From an uncultured Methanomassiliicoccales archaeon (GTDB lineage: Archaea; Thermoplasmatota; Thermoplasmata; Methanomassiliicoccales; UBA472): a DNA stretch of 64,000 bases. A program made the translations under genes and the position numbers. Where the stretch lies: assembly GCA_963695345.1 (NCBI GenBank), contig OY968769.1, forward strand, positions 1,184,001 through 1,248,000, in the 5' to 3' direction. Shown piece after piece: positions 25,799 through 55,712 of this stretch. Numbering within the stretch: position 1 is the first letter of the stretch; every line of letters starts with the position of its first letter. The notes beneath the pieces are model-generated. The model saw only the letters and a list, made by a program, of their open reading frames with translations. It was not told where the DNA came from and ran no database searches.

Positions 25799-28700
25799 TC
25801 AGTCCCCGCTGGACAGTTTGTAGAAGTCATGGCTCGGCTCGTAGATGTCCCCGGCGTTGCGCAGCTTCTTCAGCGCCTCCCTCAGTTCCTGCTCGGTCAG
25901 GTTCTTCTCCGGGGCGTGCTCCAGCAGCGTCTTGAACGACACCCCCTTGCCCGGCTCGGAGTTGGAATGGATGAGCGTACGGACGACCGAGATCTTGTTC
26001 CGGTCGGTCTTGGAGAACCCGGTCATCACCTTGTCCACGTCCATGCTGCCCGAGTCCCGTGGCCATCTTGTTCAGGTAGAACTCGACGATGCGGACGGCA
26101 CGCTCGGCGTCCTCCTTGGCGACGACGTTGCTCAGCCTTATCCGGGCCGATGCCTCGGACAGCCGGATGAACGCCTCCAGCTGACGGGCGGTGATCGGTA
26201 CGGAGGCGCCCTGCACCTCGCCCAGCTTGCGTATCGCCAGATACTTGTCCTGGATGATCTTGCGCGCTTCCTTGCTCATCACCGGCACGTACCGTTTGGA
26301 GTGCGCCACGTACTTCCGCAGGAACTCCCTGTCGTAGACCGGCTTCAGTTTGTCCGTGTCCTCCATGATCTTCTTGTAGTCGACGCCCAGATCGTCCAGC
26401 ACGCTCAGGTCCTCGTGACGGCGTACCTCGCCGCGCACGTGTCCCATGATGATGTGCTCGGCGATCCGGGTGTCCGTTCTCCGCCTTCGGCTTGTCGGTC
26501 AGCGCGAATATCAGGTCGAACCTGGAGAGCAGCGCCGGAGGCATGTTGATCTGGTCCGAGAGCGACTCGTTGTCGTCGAACCGGCCGTACTTCGGGTTGG
26601 CCGCGCCCAGCATGGAGCAGCGGCACTGGAGCGTGGCGGTGATGCCGGCCTTGGCCACCGATATCCTCTGCGACTCCATCGCCTCGTGCATGGAGGAACG
26701 GTCCTGCTCGGTCATCTTGTCGAGCTCATCAATGCAAGCGAGACCCTTATCCGCGAGCACCAGCGCACCCGCTTCCAACGTCCACCTTCCGTCGCCGAAC
26801 TCGTCCTTCACCGCGGCGGCGGTGTTGTGCACCACGAACCCGTTGCCGATGAAGCTGTGGGCATCCTCGACCGTGAGATCGTAGACGTGGTCGGGTATCC
26901 CGTCGCACCTTCCGTTCCACTTCGAGGTTATGCGCGACCAGTCGGACTGGGAATGGTCTCCGGCCGGCCCGACCGTCATGACCTCGTCGTCCGCCACTAC
27001 GTCGGACGACCGGATCCACGCCGGATCATGCCCGATCCGGCTCAAAACCTGCGTCTCCGGGGTCAGCGATTATGCGACCTTCCAGACTCCTCTGTGAGTT
27101 CCACAAGAAATGAAGGGGTGGCGATGCGGAAAACTGCTGATACTGGCCTGGTGACCGGCAGACCATCGGCAGACACCGTTTTAAGGCCGTTAACCCCCAC
27201 TTCCTGCCGATAGACGCCTTTTTCCACTTCCGTTGGAGTTTTCATCCTGCTTTCGACGAACTCCCCGATATCCGATCAGCTTTCCCTTTACCTCGATCTT
27301 GGTGTCCCCGGCGACGCAGAGTCCTGCGGCCGATGAGGACTTGCCTGAAGCGTAGATGCCCCTGGGGGCCAGCTCGGACATGTAGCGCAACAGCTGCGAG
27401 TTGTGCGACAGGATGCCGTTGGCGACGAAGATGTGGGTGTTCTCCACCTCCAGGTCGTAGACGAACGGTTCCGGCGCCGGGACCTCGGTCTTTGACACTA
27501 CCTTATCGCAATTGTATGCCGCGCTTCCAGCCGTAGTCTTCCCGACCGCAGTCGCCCTGCCCCTTGGTCACCGCCAGCTTCCTGTCCGACATAGATCTGT
27601 CCGGCCTGACGTGCGGCCAGCCACGTGCCGTTCTGTACGAACAGCGGGTGAGTGGGCGTAACGGTTATCTTCCGGCCGTTCTCGGTAACGAACTCGATCA
27701 GCCTCTTCGGCGCGGTTCCTCTTCCAGGCCCTGACCGCCCGGCCCGGCTCGATGACCCCCCGTTCCGTGAAGGTCATGACCTGGATGTCGATCTCGGCAT
27801 AGACCCCGTCGTCCACCTCCTTGCTCCCGAACTCGATCAGCGCCTCTTCCACGATGTCCTTGATGTTCATGCAGTTGCCGGAGGCCGAGCATGACCTCGG
27901 CATCGCCGGTCACGCACTTGGCCACGCCGGGATCGCCGACCAGAAGGATGTGGATGTCGCCCCTGACACGGGTTCCGTCGTCCAGCTGCTTGTGCGATCC
28001 GCCGAAGAGCTGCAGGGCCATCGATTCCTTGACCTCGTCGTAGCCGTAGATGGTGGGGCTGATGGACTTGATGATCTTGCTGAAGACGTTCGGGGAATGG
28101 GCTTCCTGCTTGATCCGCTCCTCTTCCTCCGGAGTGATGTTGACCTCTTCGTACTCGTGCTCCTGGAACTCCACCGAGTGAACTTCCAGGTTGATGTCGA
28201 ACAGGGTCGATTTGTTATTTCCCTGGGCCTTCTGGACCGATCGCAGGATGCCGTTTATGACGATCCGGTCTCCCGGAGATACCGTCCCGGCCAGGTCGTC
28301 CTCCAGATATCCGGTGAGACGCTCTGGCTGAGACCCGCCCCGCAGGCCTTCCGGATTCTCCTGGATCTCGATCTTCTGGGTGTCGACGTAGCTGGACTCC
28401 TCGGTCAGCAGGGTGAACTTGGTGCTGCCGCCGGAGCGCCCGCAGCCGTTCTGCTCCTTGTAGCATTCCAGCGGCTCCTTGAACTGGAGCCCTTCCTGGA
28501 CCTCCACGATCTTGGCCGGACAGCGGAAGCAGCGGAACACCGCCTCCACCAGCTTCGGACGCACGTCGGTCGCCTTGCGGACCAGCCCTTCGATCGCCAC
28601 CAGTTTGCCCAGATGCTCGCTGCGCAGTTTCCTGATGTCGATGCGCGAGTCCGGCGCCAGCGCCTTGAACCTCAGGTGGATCTCGTAGTTGCCCCGGGTC

Positions 28701-28945
28701 TGCTGCACCTGCTTGCGCACGACCGCCTCGCCGATGGACAGCACCCGCTGCGGTTCCTCGAGCATGAACTGGGCCATGTCCGGGTCGAACTGGTCCAGCT
28801 CGGCGTAGGCGATGTTGATGGAGCGGACCTCCGGATAGAGGTCGGCCACCTCCGCTACCCTGACACGGTTCTCACTGGACTCGAAGAACTCCTCCCAGCG
28901 CGCGGCGAGGTCCTCATCGGTATAATCGATCGGCAAAATGAACAC
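25799..28945 (-). CDS. mcm: Replicative helicase MCM with two inteins; multiple indels
   Basis: Zn finger, [22 protein letters not shown]|[50 protein letters not shown]-terminal wH. Confidence 0.93.
26824..27318 (-). mobile_element. Mini-intein 2 in MCM
   Basis: SSSAAGL|CVAGDTKI...[21 protein letters not shown]|TAAAVKDE; ~165 aa with internal indels. Confidence 0.9.
27400..27916 (-). mobile_element. Mini-intein 1 in MCM (inside Walker A)
   Basis: GDPGVAK|CVTGDAEV...[21 protein letters not shown]|SQLL; ~170 aa with internal indels. Confidence 0.9.
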
Positions 28946-46274: not shown

Positions 46275-47579
46275 CTAAGGATTGGTTCGTTTCAATGGCT
46301 TCGCCAAATGCCGACGTGCGTTGACCGGCGGTTCATACCACCCCGTGGCCAGGTCACGATGCTCGATCTCCGTTTTGGCCGCCGATTCCGGCTGCTTGCC
46401 CCCGCAAAGCTTGCACCGGTATCCCCCGTTCCGCCCCATTGACTGCATGCTCTTGTTGCATTTCGGACAGAGGGGGTTCGCGATTTTGATCCTATGATCA
46501 GAGAGTTCCAGGATCTCGATCTTTTCCAGGTTGAGCGTGCGGGGGACCGCCCGTAGCTCTCCCACTGCCTTGACATAGTCGCCCGGCCGCAGTTTTCGCA
46601 CGACTTCCCTGAAGGACTTGGAGGGCTCGTATGCGGCCAGGTCCAACTCTTGCTTGGAACGGTCCGGCCGCATCGTGATCAATGAATGTCCTCCGGCGAT
46701 TGTCCGGGGCGCGGATGTTATCCTTCCCCTGATCGCATAGGTCCTCGCCGGGAGAAGTTCCTTCCACCTCTCCATCACGTGATCGTCCGTACCCTGATTG
46801 GAAAGGAACAGTACCCATCGGTCGACGCGCTCGGACTCGATGGAATCCATGGCTGAGGGCAGGTCCTCCAGGACGTCGCCTCGGATGCCGAAGAGCACCG
46901 GGCAGGGGGTGTGCGGCGATATCGCCCTCCGGCCGGCCTGGTCGTCGAAGTTGTTGAATGTGGACGGGAACCTAGCGTTCATCTCCCGGACCGAACCGTC
47001 CGAGACCTCGCGTTGCATGCCCCAGCGCGACCGTTCCCGGTAGGCGATCACCTCATAGGTGTAATCCTTGGGCCTCCAGGACATCGCTGCCGATGCCCCT
47101 ATGATCCCCCTTCCGCCCTCCATCTCGAAGCGGGTCGCTCCGATGCGATCGAGCTCTTCCACGACCTCGTTCTTCTGCACTATGCCCCTGACAGCTTCCC
47201 AGTAGAGTTTTGCCTTGGGCTTCTTCGGGGAGACCACCAATCCGGGGCTGGCATCCTCCTCGACACGGGACCATTTCTGCAGCAGCCGGGAACACCGGTC
47301 CATGATGAGGCCGGGGTCCGCCGGCCGCACACATTCTGGATAGCAGAATATCGGACCGTCCCTGATCATTCCGACCATCCGACACGGCCCCTTGCCATGA
47401 CCGAACCGCATGGTCAGGGCGGCGTTCCCACGTGTTTTCCAAGGGACTGCCGGATTGAGGCGCACCAATCGCGGAAGGCCTATCAGGTCATGGTCCCGCA
47501 TGGCGTCGATAACCTCGGTTGCCAGATATGTGGTGCACATCGATTCTACCGAATCCGTGTCATCAAACGCGACGTACAT
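46275..47579 (-). CDS. tiaS: tRNA(Ile2) agmatidine synthetase
   Basis: DDTDS...CTTY, LVRLNPAVPWKTRGN, GRGIIGA, PVLFGIRG, NQGTDDH, OB fold, CPKC/CKLC, RRHLAKP. Confidence 0.95.
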   Translation of the reverse strand: MYVAFDDTDSVESMCTTYLATEVIDAMRDHDLIGLPRLVRLNPAVPWKTRGNAALTMRFGHGKGPCRMVGMIRDGPIFCYPECVRPADPGLIMDRCSRLLQKWSRVEEDASPGLVVSPKKPKAKLYWEAVRGIVQKNEVVEELDRIGATRFEMEGGRGIIGASAAMSWRPKDYTYEVIAYRERSRWGMQREVSDGSVREMNARFPSTFNNFDDQAGRRAISPHTPCPVLFGIRGDVLEDLPSAMDSIESERVDRWVLFLSNQGTDDHVMERWKELLPARTYAIRGRITSAPRTIAGGHSLITMRPDRSKQELDLAAYEPSKSFREVVRKLRPGDYVKAVGELRAVPRTLNLEKIEILELSDHRIKIANPLCPKCNKSMQSMGRNGGYRCKLCGGKQPESAAKTEIEHRDLATGWYEPPVNARRHLAKPLKRTNP

Positions 47580-48046: not shown

Positions 48047-48430
48047 TTGAATACCCTGGTGCGCATTTCTCCCGACATGACCAAGCCGTTTCTGACCGAG
48101 AGAGCCCCTATGCTGGCCTCTCTCTTTCTTATCGGGGGTGCGATGCTCAGCGCCCTCGGTATCATAGGATTGACGATGACCGATGTGCTCAAACTGGGAT
48201 CGTGGGATTATTGGTTAGTCATGGTGGGAGTGCCATTGCTTCTGATCGGTGTCATATGGCTTTGGATCTATCTCGCCAGGGTGAAACATTTCCGTAAAGA
48301 GCTTCAGGAGAAGAGCAAAGCGAATTTCTTGAAGAATATGGATGATACCGAGTACCTCGCCTGGCGGCTGCCAACTAAGTTTGAAAAAGAGCTGGAAAGC
48401 AAGAAAGTCGAGTTCAACATCAAGAAGTAA
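48047..48430 (+). CDS. Small two-TM membrane protein (DUF3198-like)
   Basis: Two TM helices then SKANFLKN.DD.EYLAWRLP. Confidence 0.65.
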   Translation: MNTLVRISPDMTKPFLTERAPMLASLFLIGGAMLSALGIIGLTMTDVLKLGSWDYWLVMVGVPLLLIGVIWLWIYLARVKHFRKELQEKSKANFLKNMDDTEYLAWRLPTKFEKELESKKVEFNIKK

Positions 48431-48448
48431 TGTTGAGCTTGGAGGGGC

Positions 48449-48470
48449 ACCCCTACATTTCCGGTGGAAC
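48449..48470 (-). promoter_or_regulatory. Origin recognition box (ORB) overlapping the hflX 3' end
   Basis: GTTCCACCGGAAATGTAGGGGT, 19/22 identical to the ORB at 49861. Confidence 0.75.
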
Positions 48471-49835
48471 CGTATTATCCCGGGCCGGGTCGTTCGGGAT
48501 GACGGATCCGTCGAGCGCAATGACGGACTTGGCGATACGGTCCCGGTCATCCAATTTGCATCGAAGCGAGACCTTCGTGATCGGACCGTATTCGATCGAG
48601 ATGACATCGCAGATATCGTATAGCCCGGAGAGCAGACTTTGTAGTTCTCCGGATTGGGGAGCGGCGAAATTGAGCTCGATAGGATAGGTGAACTTCTCGA
48701 GTATCTTCGTTCTCAATACATCTAATCCGTAGTCATTCTTTACTGAGGTAAGAACGATCTCTGATTGAGGGAATTCAGCCCTAACAACATCGATCCTCTC
48801 TTTCATTCCAAACCTTAATAGATCGGTCTTATTCAGAACAACGACGATGTTCAACGGATCAATTTCCGGAAGAAGAATACCTTTTGACGTTCTCAATTTC
48901 CTTATGACTTCTGGCATATCATCGGAAGAATCTAGGACTAGCAGCACTAGATCCGCATTGAAGATGTCCTCAATCGTGTTGCGGAACGATTCGATCATGA
49001 AGTGAGGAAGGTTTTCCAGGAAACCGATCGTATCGGTCAGGAGGATTTCTTTCTTGACATTCTCCATTTTTCTTGTTGTGGTGGATAGTGTAGAGAACAT
49101 TTTGTTTTCTATTATGACACTCTCACCGGTCATTTTCTTCATCAACGAGGATTTTCCGGCATTTGTGTAACCAGCGAGACAGACAAGATAGAATCCTTTT
49201 TTCTTGCGTTGCTGTCTCCGAAGAGCCTGATCATCTTTCATGCTTTTTAAATCGGTATCGATCTTCTTCATTCTCTTCTTGATAAGGTCGTAATAGGTGT
49301 TGATGGCATATTCACCACCACCGAGGAATCCTGGATGCTCCCCAGCCTTAGCATTGTGGATCCATTCCTTGAGAAAAGGCATTTCATATTGCAGCTTCGC
49401 TTTTTCAACCTGCAACATGGCCTCCTTGCTATGGGCTCTTTTTGTAAAGATGTTCAGAACAACCTTGATCCTGTCCACACACTCGATCTTTAGTGTATTC
49501 TCCAAGATATAGTGCTGACCGGGTTCCAGCTCACCGTTTATCAGAAGTACCTCAACTGGATTCTCTTCCAGAATGGTCTTGATCTCGTCAAGTTTTCCCT
49601 TTCCCACGAAATATGAAGGGTCTGAATATCTTCTTTCTTGTATTATCTCATAGAGAATGTCATATCCTGCAGTATCGGCCAACTCCTCAACCTCAGCAAC
49701 GCGACTGTTAATTGTCACTAGTGCAGCGGTGATTTTCTTTTCCGTGCGGTCGACCAAAAGAACCCTTCCCTCTTTCCTTATGACTGATTTGATGATATTC
49801 TTTTTGTACCGGTCTATCCAAGAAATTGGCCCCAC
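48453..49835 (-). CDS. hflX: GTPase HflX (true start probably ~49757)
   Basis: E..ELA.TAGY, FVGKGKL, IF..RA, GYTNAGKSSL, FSTLSTT, DTIGF, NKTD. Confidence 0.93.
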   Translation of the reverse strand: MGPISWIDRYKKNIIKSVIRKEGRVLLVDRTEKKITAALVTINSRVAEVEELADTAGYDILYEIIQERRYSDPSYFVGKGKLDEIKTILEENPVEVLLINGELEPGQHYILENTLKIECVDRIKVVLNIFTKRAHSKEAMLQVEKAKLQYEMPFLKEWIHNAKAGEHPGFLGGGEYAINTYYDLIKKRMKKIDTDLKSMKDDQALRRQQRKKKGFYLVCLAGYTNAGKSSLMKKMTGESVIIENKMFSTLSTTTRKMENVKKEILLTDTIGFLENLPHFMIESFRNTIEDIFNADLVLLVLDSSDDMPEVIRKLRTSKGILLPEIDPLNIVVVLNKTDLLRFGMKERIDVVRAEFPQSEIVLTSVKNDYGLDVLRTKILEKFTYPIELNFAAPQSGELQSLLSGLYDICDVISIEYGPITKVSLRCKLDDRDRIAKSVIALDGSVIPNDPARDNTVPPEM

Positions 49836-49860
49836 CGAGAGGCATTCCCGGCTTTTTCGG

Positions 49861-49882
49861 TCTCCACCGGAAATGAAGGGGT
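49861..49882 (+). promoter_or_regulatory. Origin recognition box (ORB)
   Basis: TCTCCACCGGAAATGAAGGGGT matches the archaeal TCCA..GGAAA...GGGG pattern; upstream of cdc6. Confidence 0.85.
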
Positions 49883-50015
49883 CCGGGTAAATCCAGATAA
49901 AGAAGGTTCGTTACGCTTTGAAACCTGCGTTTCACCTCGAATCTTATGGGAAAGATAAAAAAAGGTTTCAAGTACGCTAGTGGTTAATCACCTATTCCTT
50001 CACCTGAAGATAGGT

Positions 50016-50037
50016 TCTCCACAGGAAACCGTGGGGT
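50016..50037 (+). promoter_or_regulatory. Origin recognition box (ORB)
   Basis: TCTCCACAGGAAACCGTGGGGT, 17/22 identical to the 49861 copy. Confidence 0.8.
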
Positions 50038-50079
50038 GATCCTGTCTATCTTTCACTTTCAAATCAGAGGCAACCACCG

Positions 50080-51318
50080 ATGGACACCAACGTCTTCGAG
50101 AAACACTTGGAACGGAAACAGATATTCAAAAGGAACAACCGAGAGATTCTCAGACCATCCTATATCCCTGACGTTCTGCCCCACCGCCAAGAGGAGATCA
50201 ATTCCCTGGCCTCGGTTCTAGTGACCGCTCTGAAAGGGGAAAGGCCCTCCAACATCCTCATATTCGGTAAGACCGGGACCGGTAAGACCGCCTGCGTCAA
50301 GTACATCGGTAACGAGATAAAGAAAGCCGACGGGGAGAACAGCAAGGTCACTTTCATTTACATGAACTGTGAGATAGTCGACACACCCTATGGTGTCATG
50401 CAGAACATCGGTAACCAGTTCATCCAGAATTTCACCCAGCGAATACCATTCACCGGTCTCAGCATCATGCAGGTCTACAACCTCTTGAGGGACAAGTTGG
50501 ACGAGCAGGACCAGGTGATAATCATCGCCCTCGATGAGATCGATAAGCTGGTCTACAAGAGCGGTGACGATGTCCTGTACTATCTTTCAAAGATCAACGA
50601 CGATCTGAAGAAGGCCCGTGTTTCCATCATTGGGATCTCCAACGACCTTCTCTTCACCGACATGCTCGACTCCCGCGTCCGTTCCCGTATGGAGGGGGAG
50701 AAGATGGTCTTCCCGCCCTACAACGCCGAGCAGCTCCGGGACATCCTGAACCAGAGGGCCCTGCTCTCTTTCGACGATGAGATCCTCGAGTCGGCGGTGA
50801 TACCATTGTGCGCCGCCCTGGCAGCCCAGGAGCATGGCGACGCACGCCGGGCGTTGGACCTGTTGCGCATAGCTGCGGAGATAGCTGAGCGGGAGAACTG
50901 CGATAAGGTCACCGAACTGCATGTCTACAAAGCAAAGAACAAGATGGAGCTGGACTGTGTCAGCGAGGCGATAAGGACGCTGCCTTCCCAATCGAAGCTG
51001 GTCCTGATGTGCGTGATAGTTCTGAACGAGGGCGGGATGGAACGGCTTACCACCGGCGACGTCTACGAGAAGTACAAGGACCTCAGCCGGATCGTTGGGC
51101 TAAGCGTCCTGACACAGCGCCGCATCACCGACCTGCTGTCCGAGCTGGACATGATGGGCATAATCCACGCCAAGGTCCGTTCCTTCGGTCGCGGAGGCAG
51201 GACAAAGGAGATCGACCTGAGCGTTCCCCCCCATGAGATCAAGAAGGTCCTGGAGGAGGACGACACATTCCAGGCCCTGAAGAACTACAAGCCCAAGGGG
51301 CAGACCACCCTTATCTGA
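50080..51318 (+). CDS. cdc6: Orc1/Cdc6 replication initiator
   Basis: Y.P..LPHR, GKTGTGKT, LDEIDKL, FPPYNAEQL, GDARRALDLLR, wH with S.GRGGRT. Confidence 0.96.
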   Translation: MDTNVFEKHLERKQIFKRNNREILRPSYIPDVLPHRQEEINSLASVLVTALKGERPSNILIFGKTGTGKTACVKYIGNEIKKADGENSKVTFIYMNCEIVDTPYGVMQNIGNQFIQNFTQRIPFTGLSIMQVYNLLRDKLDEQDQVIIIALDEIDKLVYKSGDDVLYYLSKINDDLKKARVSIIGISNDLLFTDMLDSRVRSRMEGEKMVFPPYNAEQLRDILNQRALLSFDDEILESAVIPLCAALAAQEHGDARRALDLLRIAAEIAERENCDKVTELHVYKAKNKMELDCVSEAIRTLPSQSKLVLMCVIVLNEGGMERLTTGDVYEKYKDLSRIVGLSVLTQRRITDLLSELDMMGIIHAKVRSFGRGGRTKEIDLSVPPHEIKKVLEEDDTFQALKNYKPKGQTTLI

Positions 51319-52549: not shown

Positions 52550-53041
52550 ATGTCGGAAGGGGTTTCACCAACAAGCATGACTCACCCCTCAGTGAGACCG
52601 GACAACGACACCTATTTCATGAGCATGGCCGAGCTTGTGGCAACAAGATCGACCTGCTTGAGGCGAAAGGTTGGGGCGGTGATCGTCAAGGAAAAGAGGG
52701 TTCTCACAACGGGCTACAACGGCGCCCCAAAAGGCATCCGCCATTGTGAGGAAGTAGGTTGCGTTCGACTGGAGAACCATATCCAGTCAGGAACGAGGCA
52801 CGAGCTCTGCCGTGGGGTACATGCAGAACAGAACGCGGTCATTCAGGCCGCCTATTTCGGGGTCAGCATCAAGGATGCGGCGGTCTATTCCACCAATTTT
52901 CCTTGCGTACTCTGCGCGAAAATCTTATTGAACGCCGGAATAATCGAGATCATCTACAAGGACGACTACGTCGATGAACTCTCACGGTCGATCCTTTCCG
53001 AGGCAAAGGTAAATGTAAGGCATTTCGAGCCTAAATATTGA
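52550..53041 (+). CDS. dCMP deaminase (cytidine/deoxycytidylate deaminase family)
   Basis: RSTC.RR.VGAVIV, TGYNG, HAEQNA, PC..C; start at 52550 or 52577. Confidence 0.92.
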   Translation: MSEGVSPTSMTHPSVRPDNDTYFMSMAELVATRSTCLRRKVGAVIVKEKRVLTTGYNGAPKGIRHCEEVGCVRLENHIQSGTRHELCRGVHAEQNAVIQAAYFGVSIKDAAVYSTNFPCVLCAKILLNAGIIEIIYKDDYVDELSRSILSEAKVNVRHFEPKY

Positions 53042-53264
53042 TAATAGTTAATATATATTATTTGATATATTGAACAAGAACAGTTCTTTGATGGGCTTTA
53101 TCATACCATTTGAGCGGATGATCTACCGCCATCCCTACGATTCCCAAGTGGAATTGACAAAAAAGCCCCTTGAAAACCTTCGTTAGGGGAGCCATGTTAG
53201 ACATTAGCAAATCCTTTAAATATAGTAAAAATATTCCCAACCTGAACCTCCGGGGGCGAGTCCT

Positions 53265-53596: not shown

Positions 53597-55712
53597 ATGA
53601 TAATGCCAGAGAAAATGACTAGGATCCTGGTCGTAGGGTCCAAGGAATCCCTATCGCAGACCATAGACATCCTGTATGGTTTGGAGACAGTTCACCTAGT
53701 GGATTTCTCAGCGGATGAGCCAGGGTTTTCCTTGGGTTCACCATTGTCGACTGCGTCGGACGCCTCTCAGAAGCTTCTGAAGCTCCGTTCGATGGAAAGG
53801 GACCTTGACATCAAGGAGGTCAAGGGAATGGAGATCGAGGTCATCCCGATAGGGAAGATCAACTCCGAGGTGGACGAGACCATCAACGGGCTCGAGGCTG
53901 AGATCGTCGGGGTCGTCGAGACCAAGGTCAAGGCCCAGGCTAGACTGCACGAGATCGAACAGAAAAAGAAACAGCTCGAACCGTTCATGTCATTGCCCCT
54001 ACCTATTGAGCTATACTCAGGATATGAGAACCTGACGGTCTTCTTGGGGCAGATCAAGCAAGACCCGACCGCGGGACTGACACAGGCGGTCAAGCAGTTC
54101 GAGATATACAAATCAGATGAGGGCAACTTCGTCGCGGTATTCACTCCCAAGGCGGAGGCGGCAGAGGCGCAGAAAATCCTGATCCAGAACGGCTTCACGG
54201 AAACAATTGCACCTACCGGAAGAGGACTTCCCGCGGAAGAAGTAAAGAGGCTTGACGAGGAGTACGCGGTCGAAAAGAAGACCGCCGACGACGCGTCCGA
54301 GAAGGTCACCAGCCTCAGGGAGAAACACCAATCGTTCATCCTTGCCTCGGACGAGCACCTGAGCATAGTCGTAGAAAAGGCCGAGACGCCCATAAGGCTT
54401 GGAACCACTGCCCACACATTTGCGATGGACGCATGGGTACCTTCCGCCGACATCGGCGCCATCGAGAAGGAGCTCACATCGAAGCTGGGAGACAAGGTCC
54501 TCCTGGAGGTCATCAATGAAGCCCCGAGGGTAGAAGCTCACGAACCGGCAGCACGCCCCGGGATTGCCTCACAAGGAACCGTTGGAAAAGGTTCCGACGC
54601 TGCAACGTAACGGCAAAACGGTCAAACGTTTCGAGTTCCTGACCGAGCTCATCTCCACACCGCGGTATAACGAAATCGACCCCAGCATTTTCTTGTCCAT
54701 CACATTCCCGATATTCTTCGGTCTGATGGTCGGAGACATCGGATACGGAATACCGTTCCTTATCCTGGGAGCGCTTGGGCTGAAGAAGTGCACGAGCAAG
54801 GAATGGCGCACAATCGCAACCATGCTCTTCTACGGCGGTATATGGGCGACCCTGTTCGGTTTCGTCTTGTTCGGGGAAGCTTTCGGTCTGCATTTCGCAC
54901 CCAGATGGGAGCTCGCAACCTCCGGCTTTGCGAGTCTGGAAGCCTTGGAGGCTGCCATACCTTTGGGAAATGAGATGACCTGGTCAAGCTTGACAGGGAT
55001 CGAGTTCCCACACAACCTACTGGGGATCCCGATTGGTATCTTCAGCAAACTGAACGATGTTAAGATCCTCCTCTGGATAACGATTTGGATCGGCATAATC
55101 CACCTGTACCTCGGTTTCGGATTGGGGTTCGTGAACAAGGCCATGAGGCACGGAATGAAACACGCCTTCATGGAAAGGGGAAGCTGGCTCTTCATACTCA
55201 CCGGAGGAGTGTTCCTCCTGGTATACATGGTCAGCACCCTGATCGCACCCTGGTTGATCGACAGTTCGCTCGCGACTATCTGCATGATAATGGGTATCGC
55301 GACCCTTGTGCCTGGGATAGTCATCCTGTTCCTGGCAGAGGGAGCAACATCGATACTTGAGCTACCGGGTCTGCTGAGCAACATAATTTCTTACGCTCGT
55401 CTGGCTGCAGTCGGCATGTCCAAGGCGGGTCTGGCGCTGGCCTTCAACACCATCGCCTTCCAAACCATTTTGGGCTTCGACCCTCATGCAGCCCAGGCGG
55501 CGACCTTCACAAATGCGAGCATTGTGTTGATCATCGTTGCGGTGGCGATATTGATAGTAGGACATCTGACGGTGTTCATCCTAGGGATCCTATCGGCCGG
55601 AATGCACGGCATTAGGCTTCACTATGTTGAGCTCTTCCAAAAATTCTACGAGGGCGGCGGCGTAAAGTTCAACCCGCTGAGAATAGTGAGAAAGCGTACA
55701 AGCGAGAGGTGA
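53597..55712 (+). CDS. atpI: A1Ao ATP synthase subunit I (a); indel near 54560
   Basis: PEKM, WVP, P.Y.EIDP, FG.MVGD.GYG, SYARL.A, H..RLHYVE.F.KFY.GGG..F.P. Confidence 0.93.

Follow-up and report, generated by a model that had tools for sequence, protein, structure and literature searches.

Which DNA is opened at a replication origin whose recognition boxes stand on either side of a gene? The textbook archaeal origin is an intergenic module, in which a duplex unwinding element (DUE), short and AT-rich, stands between origin recognition boxes (ORBs). The stretch considered here is a 64,000-nucleotide part of the chromosome of an uncultured Methanomassiliicoccales archaeon (contig OY968769.1). 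This whole stretch, called the window, covers chromosome positions 1,184,001-1,248,000 of a genome that consists of one contig of 2,561,992 bp (GC content 0.560, completeness score 85%); coordinates are those of the window unless given as chromosome positions. The genes p3, hflX and orc1/cdc6.1 follow each other there from left to right. An earlier reading of the letters alone (the original prediction) had proposed an Orc1/Cdc6-type origin with hflX between inverted ORBs, the gene doubling as the unwinding region. The locus is best explained as an oriC1-type origin at which hflX, between initiators that would face each other, may be the zone of MCM loading and opening, a reading that we hold at about even odds (0.5). 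The genes and boxes that carry it are as follows.

48446 to 48472, minus strand: ORB-d, the distal box, mini-ORB core with G-string, 35.0 bits
48453 to 49835, minus strand: hflX, GTPase gene inside the outward-facing ORB pair (TIGR03156)
49859 to 49885, plus strand: ORB-a, inverted-repeat partner of ORB-d, 34.9 bits, invariant in 6/6 genus genomes
50014 to 50040, plus strand: ORB-b, 40 nt upstream of the cdc6 ATG, 24.5 bits, core invariant in 6/6 genus genomes
50080 to 51318, plus strand: orc1/cdc6.1, initiator gene (NF001625, ORC1-type, 574 bits, cut-off 501)

The hflX product scored 279.1 bits against the full-length HflX equivalog TIGR03156 (cut-off 216.75) and matched Pfam GTP-bdg_N, GTP-bdg_M and MMR_HSR1, each above its cut-off. 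The cdc6.1 product also matches Pfam Cdc6_C, Cdc6_lid and AAA.

The 19-nt ORB pattern TCCACNGGAAAYNNNGGGG has three exact copies in the genome, all at this locus (48450-48468, minus strand; 49863-49881 and 50018-50036, plus strand). The latter two are the boxes predicted upstream of cdc6 at 49861 and 50016. Three of the five exact genomic copies of the 11-mer core TCCACNGGAAA also lie here; when up to one mismatch was allowed, the window gave nine matches against 4.95 expected, and its three exact ones are the ORBs. A weight matrix of 27 columns, built from 82 ORB sites of relatives (family f1), had only four matches above 20 bits in the genome, namely the three boxes and one of 32.9 bits at 27096-27122, the next best reaching 15.2 bits. 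Between 47500 and 51500, nothing beyond the three boxes reached 4 bits with this full-ORB matrix. An independent repeat search recovered 48449-48468 and 49863-49882 as arms of 20 nt, 95% complementary, with 1394 nt between them. All three boxes match the Methanomassiliicoccales and archaeal ORB consensus given in the available parts of PMC4153887. With clustered ORBs that are rare elsewhere, and with the cognate orc1/cdc6 gene (NF001625) adjoining, the locus is by its sequence features the putative main chromosomal origin, Orc1/Cdc6.1-dependent and of the known oriC1 type, as had been predicted.

The orientation of the boxes indicates which DNA the initiators would face. ORBs on the two sides of a DUE differ in polarity; the initiators thereby face one another, and MCM loading takes place in between (review, PMC6742236, accessible parts). 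Relatives with compact origins show the same logic. In 11 of them (L033, L035-L041, L043, L054, L056), a single strong minus-strand ORB lies about 315 nt upstream of cdc6, and its mini-ORB side is followed by a 40-bp bin with a GC content of 0.00-0.10; in L045 a minus-strand ORB is followed by 131 bp at GC 0.21 and then by a plus-strand ORB. Locus L042 (ORB at -550, GC 0.00 over four bins) was set aside as possibly masked sequence. The unwinding element in this group therefore lies on the side away from the G-string. In the window, the opposite polarity is present between ORB-d and ORB-a, the G-strings pointing outward and the mini-ORB sides inward, as in the boxes flanking the unwinding element of the compact relatives; the flanked DNA is a 1.39-kb gene of GC 0.45, and between the boxes no short intergenic stretch falls below GC 0.37. 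By the polarity rule, ORB-d and ORB-a face hflX. We infer that Orc1/Cdc6.1 would bind all three boxes, two as direct copies upstream of its own gene and one inverted 1.39 kb away beyond hflX, and that MCM would be loaded between the facing initiators, on hflX, with unwinding within the gene.

Conservation of this bracket was followed in 57 loci of Methanomassiliicoccales and Methanomassiliicoccaceae archaea, gathered with the Cdc6 protein. An hflX match was found in 30, in 29 of them divergent from cdc6. After L052 (hflX co-directional with cdc6) and L007 (hflX cut) had been set aside, 28 loci with a complete hflX were left. An outward-facing ORB pair, minus strand on the left and plus strand on the right, encloses hflX in all 28 (span 1269-1438 bp), the homologous distal ORB being present in each. 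Such a pair surrounds hflX in seven further loci of family f5 and in family f12, and hflX together with p3 in families f13 and f21, the spans reaching 1.7-3.2 kb across these last three families. The gene itself was found in 27 of 81 sampled genomes of the class and not found in 12/12 near-complete genomes of family f2, of the same order. In the Methanomethylophilaceae loci L046-L051, the outward-facing pair encloses cdc6 itself (span about 1515 bp), in line with 'Ca. M. alvus', for which ORBs are listed to either side of cdc6.1 in the available parts of PMC4153887. The same parts report a 113-bp pair of ORBs, ORB1 and ORB2, for M. luminyensis; no near match to it was found among our loci, a set without that genome.

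In family f4 the boxes stay with hflX although cdc6 is elsewhere. Both genomes examined (G059, G029) carry an ORB-flanked, low-GC hflX at 1-3 Mb from the cdc6.1 orthologue (64% identity), and no ORB of at least 14 bits was found within about 5 kb of that orthologue. The f4 hflX region forms a GC trough of 0.28-0.33 against 0.40-0.46; this trough begins about 2 kb before the weak left box. In loci L061-L064, L086-L088 and L090 of this family, the boxes flank an hflX whose orientation is reversed relative to p3, which an inversion between the inverted ORBs would explain. In families f26 and f55 (L132-L142), from other classes of the phylum, a single strong ORB of 25-31 bits precedes the hflX start by 15-50 nt, its mini-ORB side facing the gene; no cdc6 match lies in the 1.5-kb flanks and the GC content of hflX is not depressed.

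The gene between the boxes is AT-rich, as the original prediction had it. The GC content of hflX is 0.446, a value as low being found in 31 of 1852 non-overlapping genome windows of 1383 bp (1.6%), and its third-position GC (GC3) of 0.53 lies at the 5th percentile of 2186 crudely called genes. To compare loci, the GC content of 1.5-kb flanks was subtracted from that of hflX; seven loci with short flanks were dropped. Where a pair encloses hflX, the median difference is -0.056 (n=41, range -0.119 to +0.010, 35 negative), against +0.005 where no ORB was found (n=24, 10 negative) and +0.001 with a single or other ORB arrangement (n=11, among them three f4 loci at -0.05 to -0.08). A search to enlarge the no-ORB control family f10 gave no new genomes. 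For cdc6, with sixteen incomplete loci dropped, the median is -0.109 in the six enclosed loci, all negative and from a single clade, and +0.033 in the 40 that are not enclosed (3 negative). The positive cdc6 values are inflated in f1 loci because the left flank is hflX; in compact-origin loci cdc6 differs from its flanks by -0.02 to +0.05.

The shift lies at synonymous sites. GC3 differs by -0.03 to -0.21 in f5, with a difference of about 0 at first and second positions, and by -0.25 to -0.32 in enclosed cdc6. In this test, seven rows had no inside open reading frame (ORF), the stop-to-stop ORF having overrun the margin, and three positive differences (L005, L006, L010) probably come from mis-framed flank ORFs in GC-rich loci; more weight is therefore given to the conserved bracket and to the whole-gene comparisons. 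AT-enrichment thus tracks position between ORBs, whichever gene sits there.

Duplex stability was calculated by a one-run approximation of Benham's model of stress-induced duplex destabilization (SIDD). Two stretches within hflX stand out.

49042 to 49125, no strand: easiest-opening predicted stretch in hflX, SIDD probability up to 0.60 (sigma -0.07, 4-kb domain)
49608 to 49665, no strand: second predicted easy-opening stretch in hflX, SIDD probability up to 0.42 (ORB-bounded domain)

They rank fourth and fifth, respectively, among the least stable 100-bp windows of the 64 kb, and hflX holds ranks 3, 5 and 6 among the least stable 200-bp windows. When the domain was bounded by the ORBs, opening was predicted at 49085-49119, 49614-49665 and 49773-49808, all inside the annotated hflX ORF. 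The AT-enriched gene body would thus hold the most easily opened stretches between the boxes. The first two stretches lie well inside hflX, and the third falls among its doubtful first codons. The annotated start is a GTG, and the first 30 or so codons are variable as protein and well conserved as DNA (49755-49835), with a conserved plus-strand motif TGATGATATT..TTTTGTA at 49790-49812. Translation may really begin at the TTG at 49757, which follows a purine-rich stretch, in which case the non-coding gap to cdc6 would be about 320 bp. No hidden DNA element was found in the hflX body, where third-position conservation within the genus is low throughout (0.05-0.40), with higher values confined to the ORB end and the first 30 or so annotated codons.

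A sister clade differs at the distal box. In 13 luminyensis-like loci, the first 100 bp or so inside the distal ORB is 0.32 below the locus GC, with about 80 bp of nearly pure A/T in L016 and L006, and in 5 of the 13 an inverted mini-ORB (up to one mismatch) within the last hflX codons closes this AT spacer. By its layout, the spacer is probably a canonical ORB-DUE-miniORB core, situated at the distal box 1.4 kb from cdc6. In the genus of the window there is no spacer: 48451-48600 has a GC content of 0.57-0.61, and the hflX body is 0.04-0.12 below the locus GC in 10 of 14 bins. This genus would have lost the short AT spacer by the distal ORB, the hflX frame running into the ORB and taking its TAG as a stop.

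The end of hflX is indeed written by the box. The original prediction had read the inverted ORB as GTT CCA CCG GAA ATG TAG, or V-P-P-E-M-stop, and this is exact: bases 48453-48470 of the minus-strand ORB-d are the last five hflX codons and the TAG. The G of this TAG is the first G of the ORB G-string, and the remainder of the box lies within the 22-nt gap to the stop of the convergent gene.

48047 to 48430, plus strand: p3, ORF for a small membrane protein, convergent with hflX, stop 15 nt from ORB-d

This p3 is a conserved neighbour (tblastn places it at the same site in 27 of the 28 loci that have a complete hflX), with a weak DUF3198 match under the cut-off. A 26-nt block containing the distal ORB is invariant in 6/6 genus genomes, in which the flanking intergenic DNA and the hflX tail are both variable. 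Within the genus, 25% of residues and 40% of third positions are invariant in the last 20 hflX codons, against 79% of residues overall, and those just before PPEM vary (TV, GF, AV, ES, SV). Since the box is fixed a few bases from the p3 stop and the hflX tail is variable, the ORB is the constrained element into which the protein reads.

The overlap itself is lineage-specific. It occurs in 10 of the 28 relatives. Eight of these (L001-3, L019, L013, L015, L032, L017) share the geometry seen here (...P[PS]EM* or ...QET*), L025 has an ORB wholly within the coding end of hflX and L027 a partial overlap. In 16 the ORB is intergenic, 8-124 nt past the hflX stop; the stop is 82-106 nt short of the box in the 13 luminyensis-like loci and 7-19 nt short in L020, L028 and L030. 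In L018 and L021, an early stop or problems with the frame leave the geometry ambiguous. Orthologs of hflX thus keep the ORB as DNA in 28/28 loci but keep the overlap with the end of the gene in far fewer. Because it is lineage-specific and the sister clade has an AT-rich spacer there instead, the stop-codon overlap looks incidental, probably a passive by-product of spacer loss with no regulatory link to HflX. The suggestion of dual-coded DNA tying a ribosome GTPase to initiation is therefore not supported: the overlap is confined to 10 of the 28 relatives, and no part of the protein is less conserved than the overlapped tail.

Several observations weigh against hflX as the opening zone. In an 11-kb domain, all predicted SIDD opening moves to 53004-53242, outside the ORBs, and the 200 bp of hflX beside the distal ORB is GC-rich (0.57-0.61), unlike a canonical DUE, which abuts its ORB. 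The hflX body has near-normal GC in the luminyensis-like clade, and 6 of the 41 pair-enclosed loci show no AT depression. When family medians are compared, 5 families with pairs against 15 without, the difference is weak (Mann-Whitney p=0.042, relatives not being independent); the cdc6 comparison draws on one clade; and the matrix was trained on f1, so diverged ORBs may be missed in the class without ORBs. Synonymous sites of hflX show no extra constraint (pS 0.65 against 0.51 for cdc6). Since they are saturated and unconstrained, mutation of often-opened DNA is as possible a source of the AT-enrichment as selection, and the AT-richness of hflX could be a mutational by-product or weak codon bias. 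A smaller outward-facing arrangement also exists upstream of cdc6, which is taken up below.

Strand composition gives a mixed picture. The detrended cumulative GC-skew maximum lies at chromosome position 1,180,965 and the purine-skew peak at 1,175,785, and the locus, at about 1,233,900, is on a plateau from 1.025 to 1.275 Mb. Locus and skew maximum are thus 53 kb apart, and the polarity of the skew runs counter to the bacterial rule. The arms differ (mean skew -0.0102 right, +0.0056 left, p=0.0006); in G040, a second genome with this architecture, 20 sampled stretches agree in sign as a trend only (p=0.076). Given a C-rich leading strand, the skew would fit an origin at this locus, without being decisive. 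The original prediction had large genes pointing away from the locus, which is so locally (67% of 42 crude genes within 20 kb, 62% of 95 within 50 kb) but not genome-wide (51.5%).

The strongest alternative, which we consider unlikely though well short of negligible, is a compact origin upstream of cdc6. Opening would then occur upstream of ORB-b, on the stretch that begins at either the mini-ORB or ORB-a; the distal ORB would be an accessory or a leftover (enhancer, boundary, or remnant of the sister clade's distal core), and the AT-richness of hflX would be unrelated. Two further elements are involved.

49929 to 49941, minus strand: decayed mini-ORB between ORB-a and ORB-b, 7.4-bit core match
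49946 to 49965, no strand: A-tract motif ATAAAAAAAGGTTTCAAGTA, 100% conserved in 6/6 genus genomes

With ORB-b, this mini-ORB (49929-41) encloses a 72-bp stretch that contains the invariant A-tract. ORB-a, the A-tract, CAATCACC near 49990 and ORB-b are invariant islands in 6/6 genus genomes, CAATCACC lying, like ATAAAAAAAGGTTTCAAGTA, between the decayed mini-ORB and ORB-b. The A-tract could be a promoter element or the core of a small DUE, and possible roles for both motifs are a promoter, a ucm-like origin motif or a small DUE. Some relatives have a stronger minus-strand ORB at the offset of the decayed mini-ORB, -158 in L002 and L019 and -154 in L013, L015 and L032, which pairs outward with ORB-b over about 60-70 bp. 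The GC content of 49901-50050 is 0.39-0.42, and canonical archaeal origins are intergenic in the available parts of PMC12141716, PMC6742236 and PMC4010727, the last of which also describes accessory ORB clusters with regulatory roles in Haloarcula. However, the spacer upstream of cdc6 is no more AT-rich than the hflX body, the intergenic A-tract has a SIDD probability of at most 0.09, and the mini-ORB is degenerate here. A compact origin also leaves unexplained why whichever gene is bracketed is AT-rich at synonymous sites and why ORBs stay with hflX when cdc6 is elsewhere, and the sister clade has its AT-rich spacer at the distal ORB, not at cdc6.

The weak boxes around this mini-ORB fared less well than the strong ones. 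The copy predicted at about 49930 is a marginal match, and on the minus strand rather than the plus; at the other predicted place, about 50051, nothing reaches 6 bits. Core matches of 6-8 bits have a genomic background of 0.4-0.8 per kb. The core-only matrix gave six weak matches (6-10 bits) in 1.9 kb, compared with 0.8 per kb genome-wide, and these were rejected as mini-ORBs, the region being AT-rich.

An improbable alternative gives the distal ORB a mainly regulatory role as an Orc1 site (a transcriptional roadblock or an aid to termination of p3 and hflX, or Orc1 control of hflX), the ORB in the mcm region being similar, with no part in initiation. The distal ORB does lie exactly at convergent gene ends, the strong mcm ORB stands far from any partner and is kept in 8/8 genus genomes, isolated ORBs are also reported for 'Ca. 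M. intestinalis' (PMC4153887, in the parts available), and Orc1-family proteins can act as regulators (PMC9738581, likewise in part). A purely regulatory site would not account for the polarity of this box, conserved in 28/28 relatives along with its match to ORB-a (20 nt, 95% complementary) over a span that stays within 1.27-1.44 kb, nor for the sister clade, where the distal ORB flanks a DUE-like spacer closed in 5/13 loci by an inverted mini-ORB. The f4 boxes bracket hflX in the opposite orientation, which ties the distal ORB to the bracket rather than to the hflX 3' end.

A chance motif match or a recently transferred low-GC hflX, for which the 37 other low-GC clusters in the genome might speak, is ruled out for practical purposes by the confinement of the 19-nt pattern to this locus, by ORBs and synteny conserved in 28/28 relatives and across families, by saturated synonymous divergence within the genus and by an hflX dN/dS (ratio of nonsynonymous to synonymous divergence) of 0.043 there, which indicates strong purifying selection on a working gene. 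The corresponding value for p3 was discarded, since the coordinates taken for the relatives included a stop.

The mcm ORB is a side observation in its own right. This fourth full-strength box (27096-27122, plus strand) lies within the mcm region on the strand opposite to mcm, between intein-like and extein-like segments, with no partner box nearby. It is kept at 28.7-32.9 bits in the genus genomes, with flanks 83-89% identical. The mcm gene (25827-28945, minus strand; MCM_N, MCM_OB and the MCM P-loop on its first piece) has intein-like insertions and is split over several frames.

Taking hflX as the loading and opening zone, a wider account can be tentatively proposed, which we rate somewhat below even. 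In the ancestral origin of the Thermoplasmatota, the loading and unwinding zone would have been, in place of an intergenic DUE, a whole gene between outward-facing ORBs about 1.4-1.5 kb apart, hflX in most families or, where hflX is absent, cdc6. Origin activity would drive synonymous AT-richness through selection or mutation. The bracket would be a conserved unit that keeps hflX even when cdc6 is megabases away, and within which hflX can be flipped, probably by recombination between the inverted ORBs. In the genus of the window, the spacer would have been lost and hflX would have taken over entirely.

How does this arrangement compare with known origins? In the bipartite origins of Helicobacter pylori and Bacillus subtilis, clusters of boxes for the initiator DnaA lie on both sides of the whole dnaA gene, and unwinding occurs in one non-coding sub-region; we know of no report of a compositional change in the enclosed gene. 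For Methanomassiliicoccales, Borrel et al. 2014 (PMC4153887) describe, in the available parts, the same order and ORB consensus with an ATP synthase operon nearby, and likewise two orc1/cdc6 paralogues, separated by 60-90 kb, of which one alone has ORBs. hflX is mentioned 0 times in PMC4153887, and these parts give no account of a distal ORB beyond hflX, the stop overlap, the polarity logic or an AT-enriched enclosed gene. Sulfolobus oriC1 (ORB2-DUE-ORB3, Orc1-1; accessible portions of PMC12141716 and PMC6742236) is alike in that inverted, polar, monomeric Orc1 sites flank the region of MCM loading and opening and in that it adjoins its cognate orc1 gene. The flanked DNA there is a short, non-coding, highly AT-rich DUE, whereas here it is a conserved protein-coding gene of moderately low GC (0.45) with full ORBs 1.39 kb apart.

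Haloarchaeal oriC1 has the context gbp, cdc6 and signal peptidase (Wu et al. 2014, PMC4010727, in the sections at hand). Here hflX lies on one side of cdc6 and a weak signal peptidase I match on the other: the gene beside cdc6 had no Pfam match as a signal peptidase, and the NCBIfam archaeal signal peptidase I model gave 19.7 bits (cut-off 51.85). The haloarchaeal inverted ORBs are intergenic and are not said in those sections to enclose gbp, a possible counterpart of hflX. Because a GTP-binding protein gene is listed beside cdc6 there, the hflX/cdc6 neighbourhood may be ancient. A literature search found no paper joining 'origin recognition box', archaea and hflX, and likewise no experimental work on initiator binding or initiation in this lineage. 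The locus itself belongs to a known kind of origin; the gene-enclosing architecture, its conservation and the position-dependent AT-enrichment appear to be new.

Other features surround the origin. A second orc1/cdc6 paralogue (Cdc6_C; L059) lies outside the window at chromosome positions 1297342-1297611 (minus strand), 63 kb to the right, and matches the orc1/cdc6.2 copy described for Methanomassiliicoccales (PMC4153887, in part). In a weight-matrix scan, no ORB of at least 10 bits was found from 1,234,014 to 1,449,294, a stretch that includes this paralogue. Two genes to the left of the origin is a TiaS gene (tRNA-Ile2 agmatidine synthetase domains; 46275-47579, minus strand), and the region gave no Rfam match at E <=1. 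No DNA in the 64 kb is less stable than 53004-53242, of which 50 bp is at GC 0.16. This stretch has no ORB, contains a TTTAAATATA-like box and lies between a dCMP-deaminase-family gene and an A-type ATP synthase operon (AhaH and subunit I matches under curated cut-offs). The subunit I gene is split as well (53597-54610 and 54564-55712). Since both this gene and mcm are split and the genome is 85% complete, indel errors in the assembly are likely.

The idea that hflX serves as the loading zone is directly testable, because sister clades with and without a dedicated spacer exist, one of them including cultured Methanomassiliicoccus relatives. A transcribed, essential-type gene may be the place where this lineage loads MCM and opens its DNA. 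If so, the locus would be a natural system for the coexistence of replication and transcription at an origin, and a case of origin function shaping codon usage. It would also provide a genomic signature for origins in uncultured archaea, namely gene-sized AT troughs between outward-facing ORBs.

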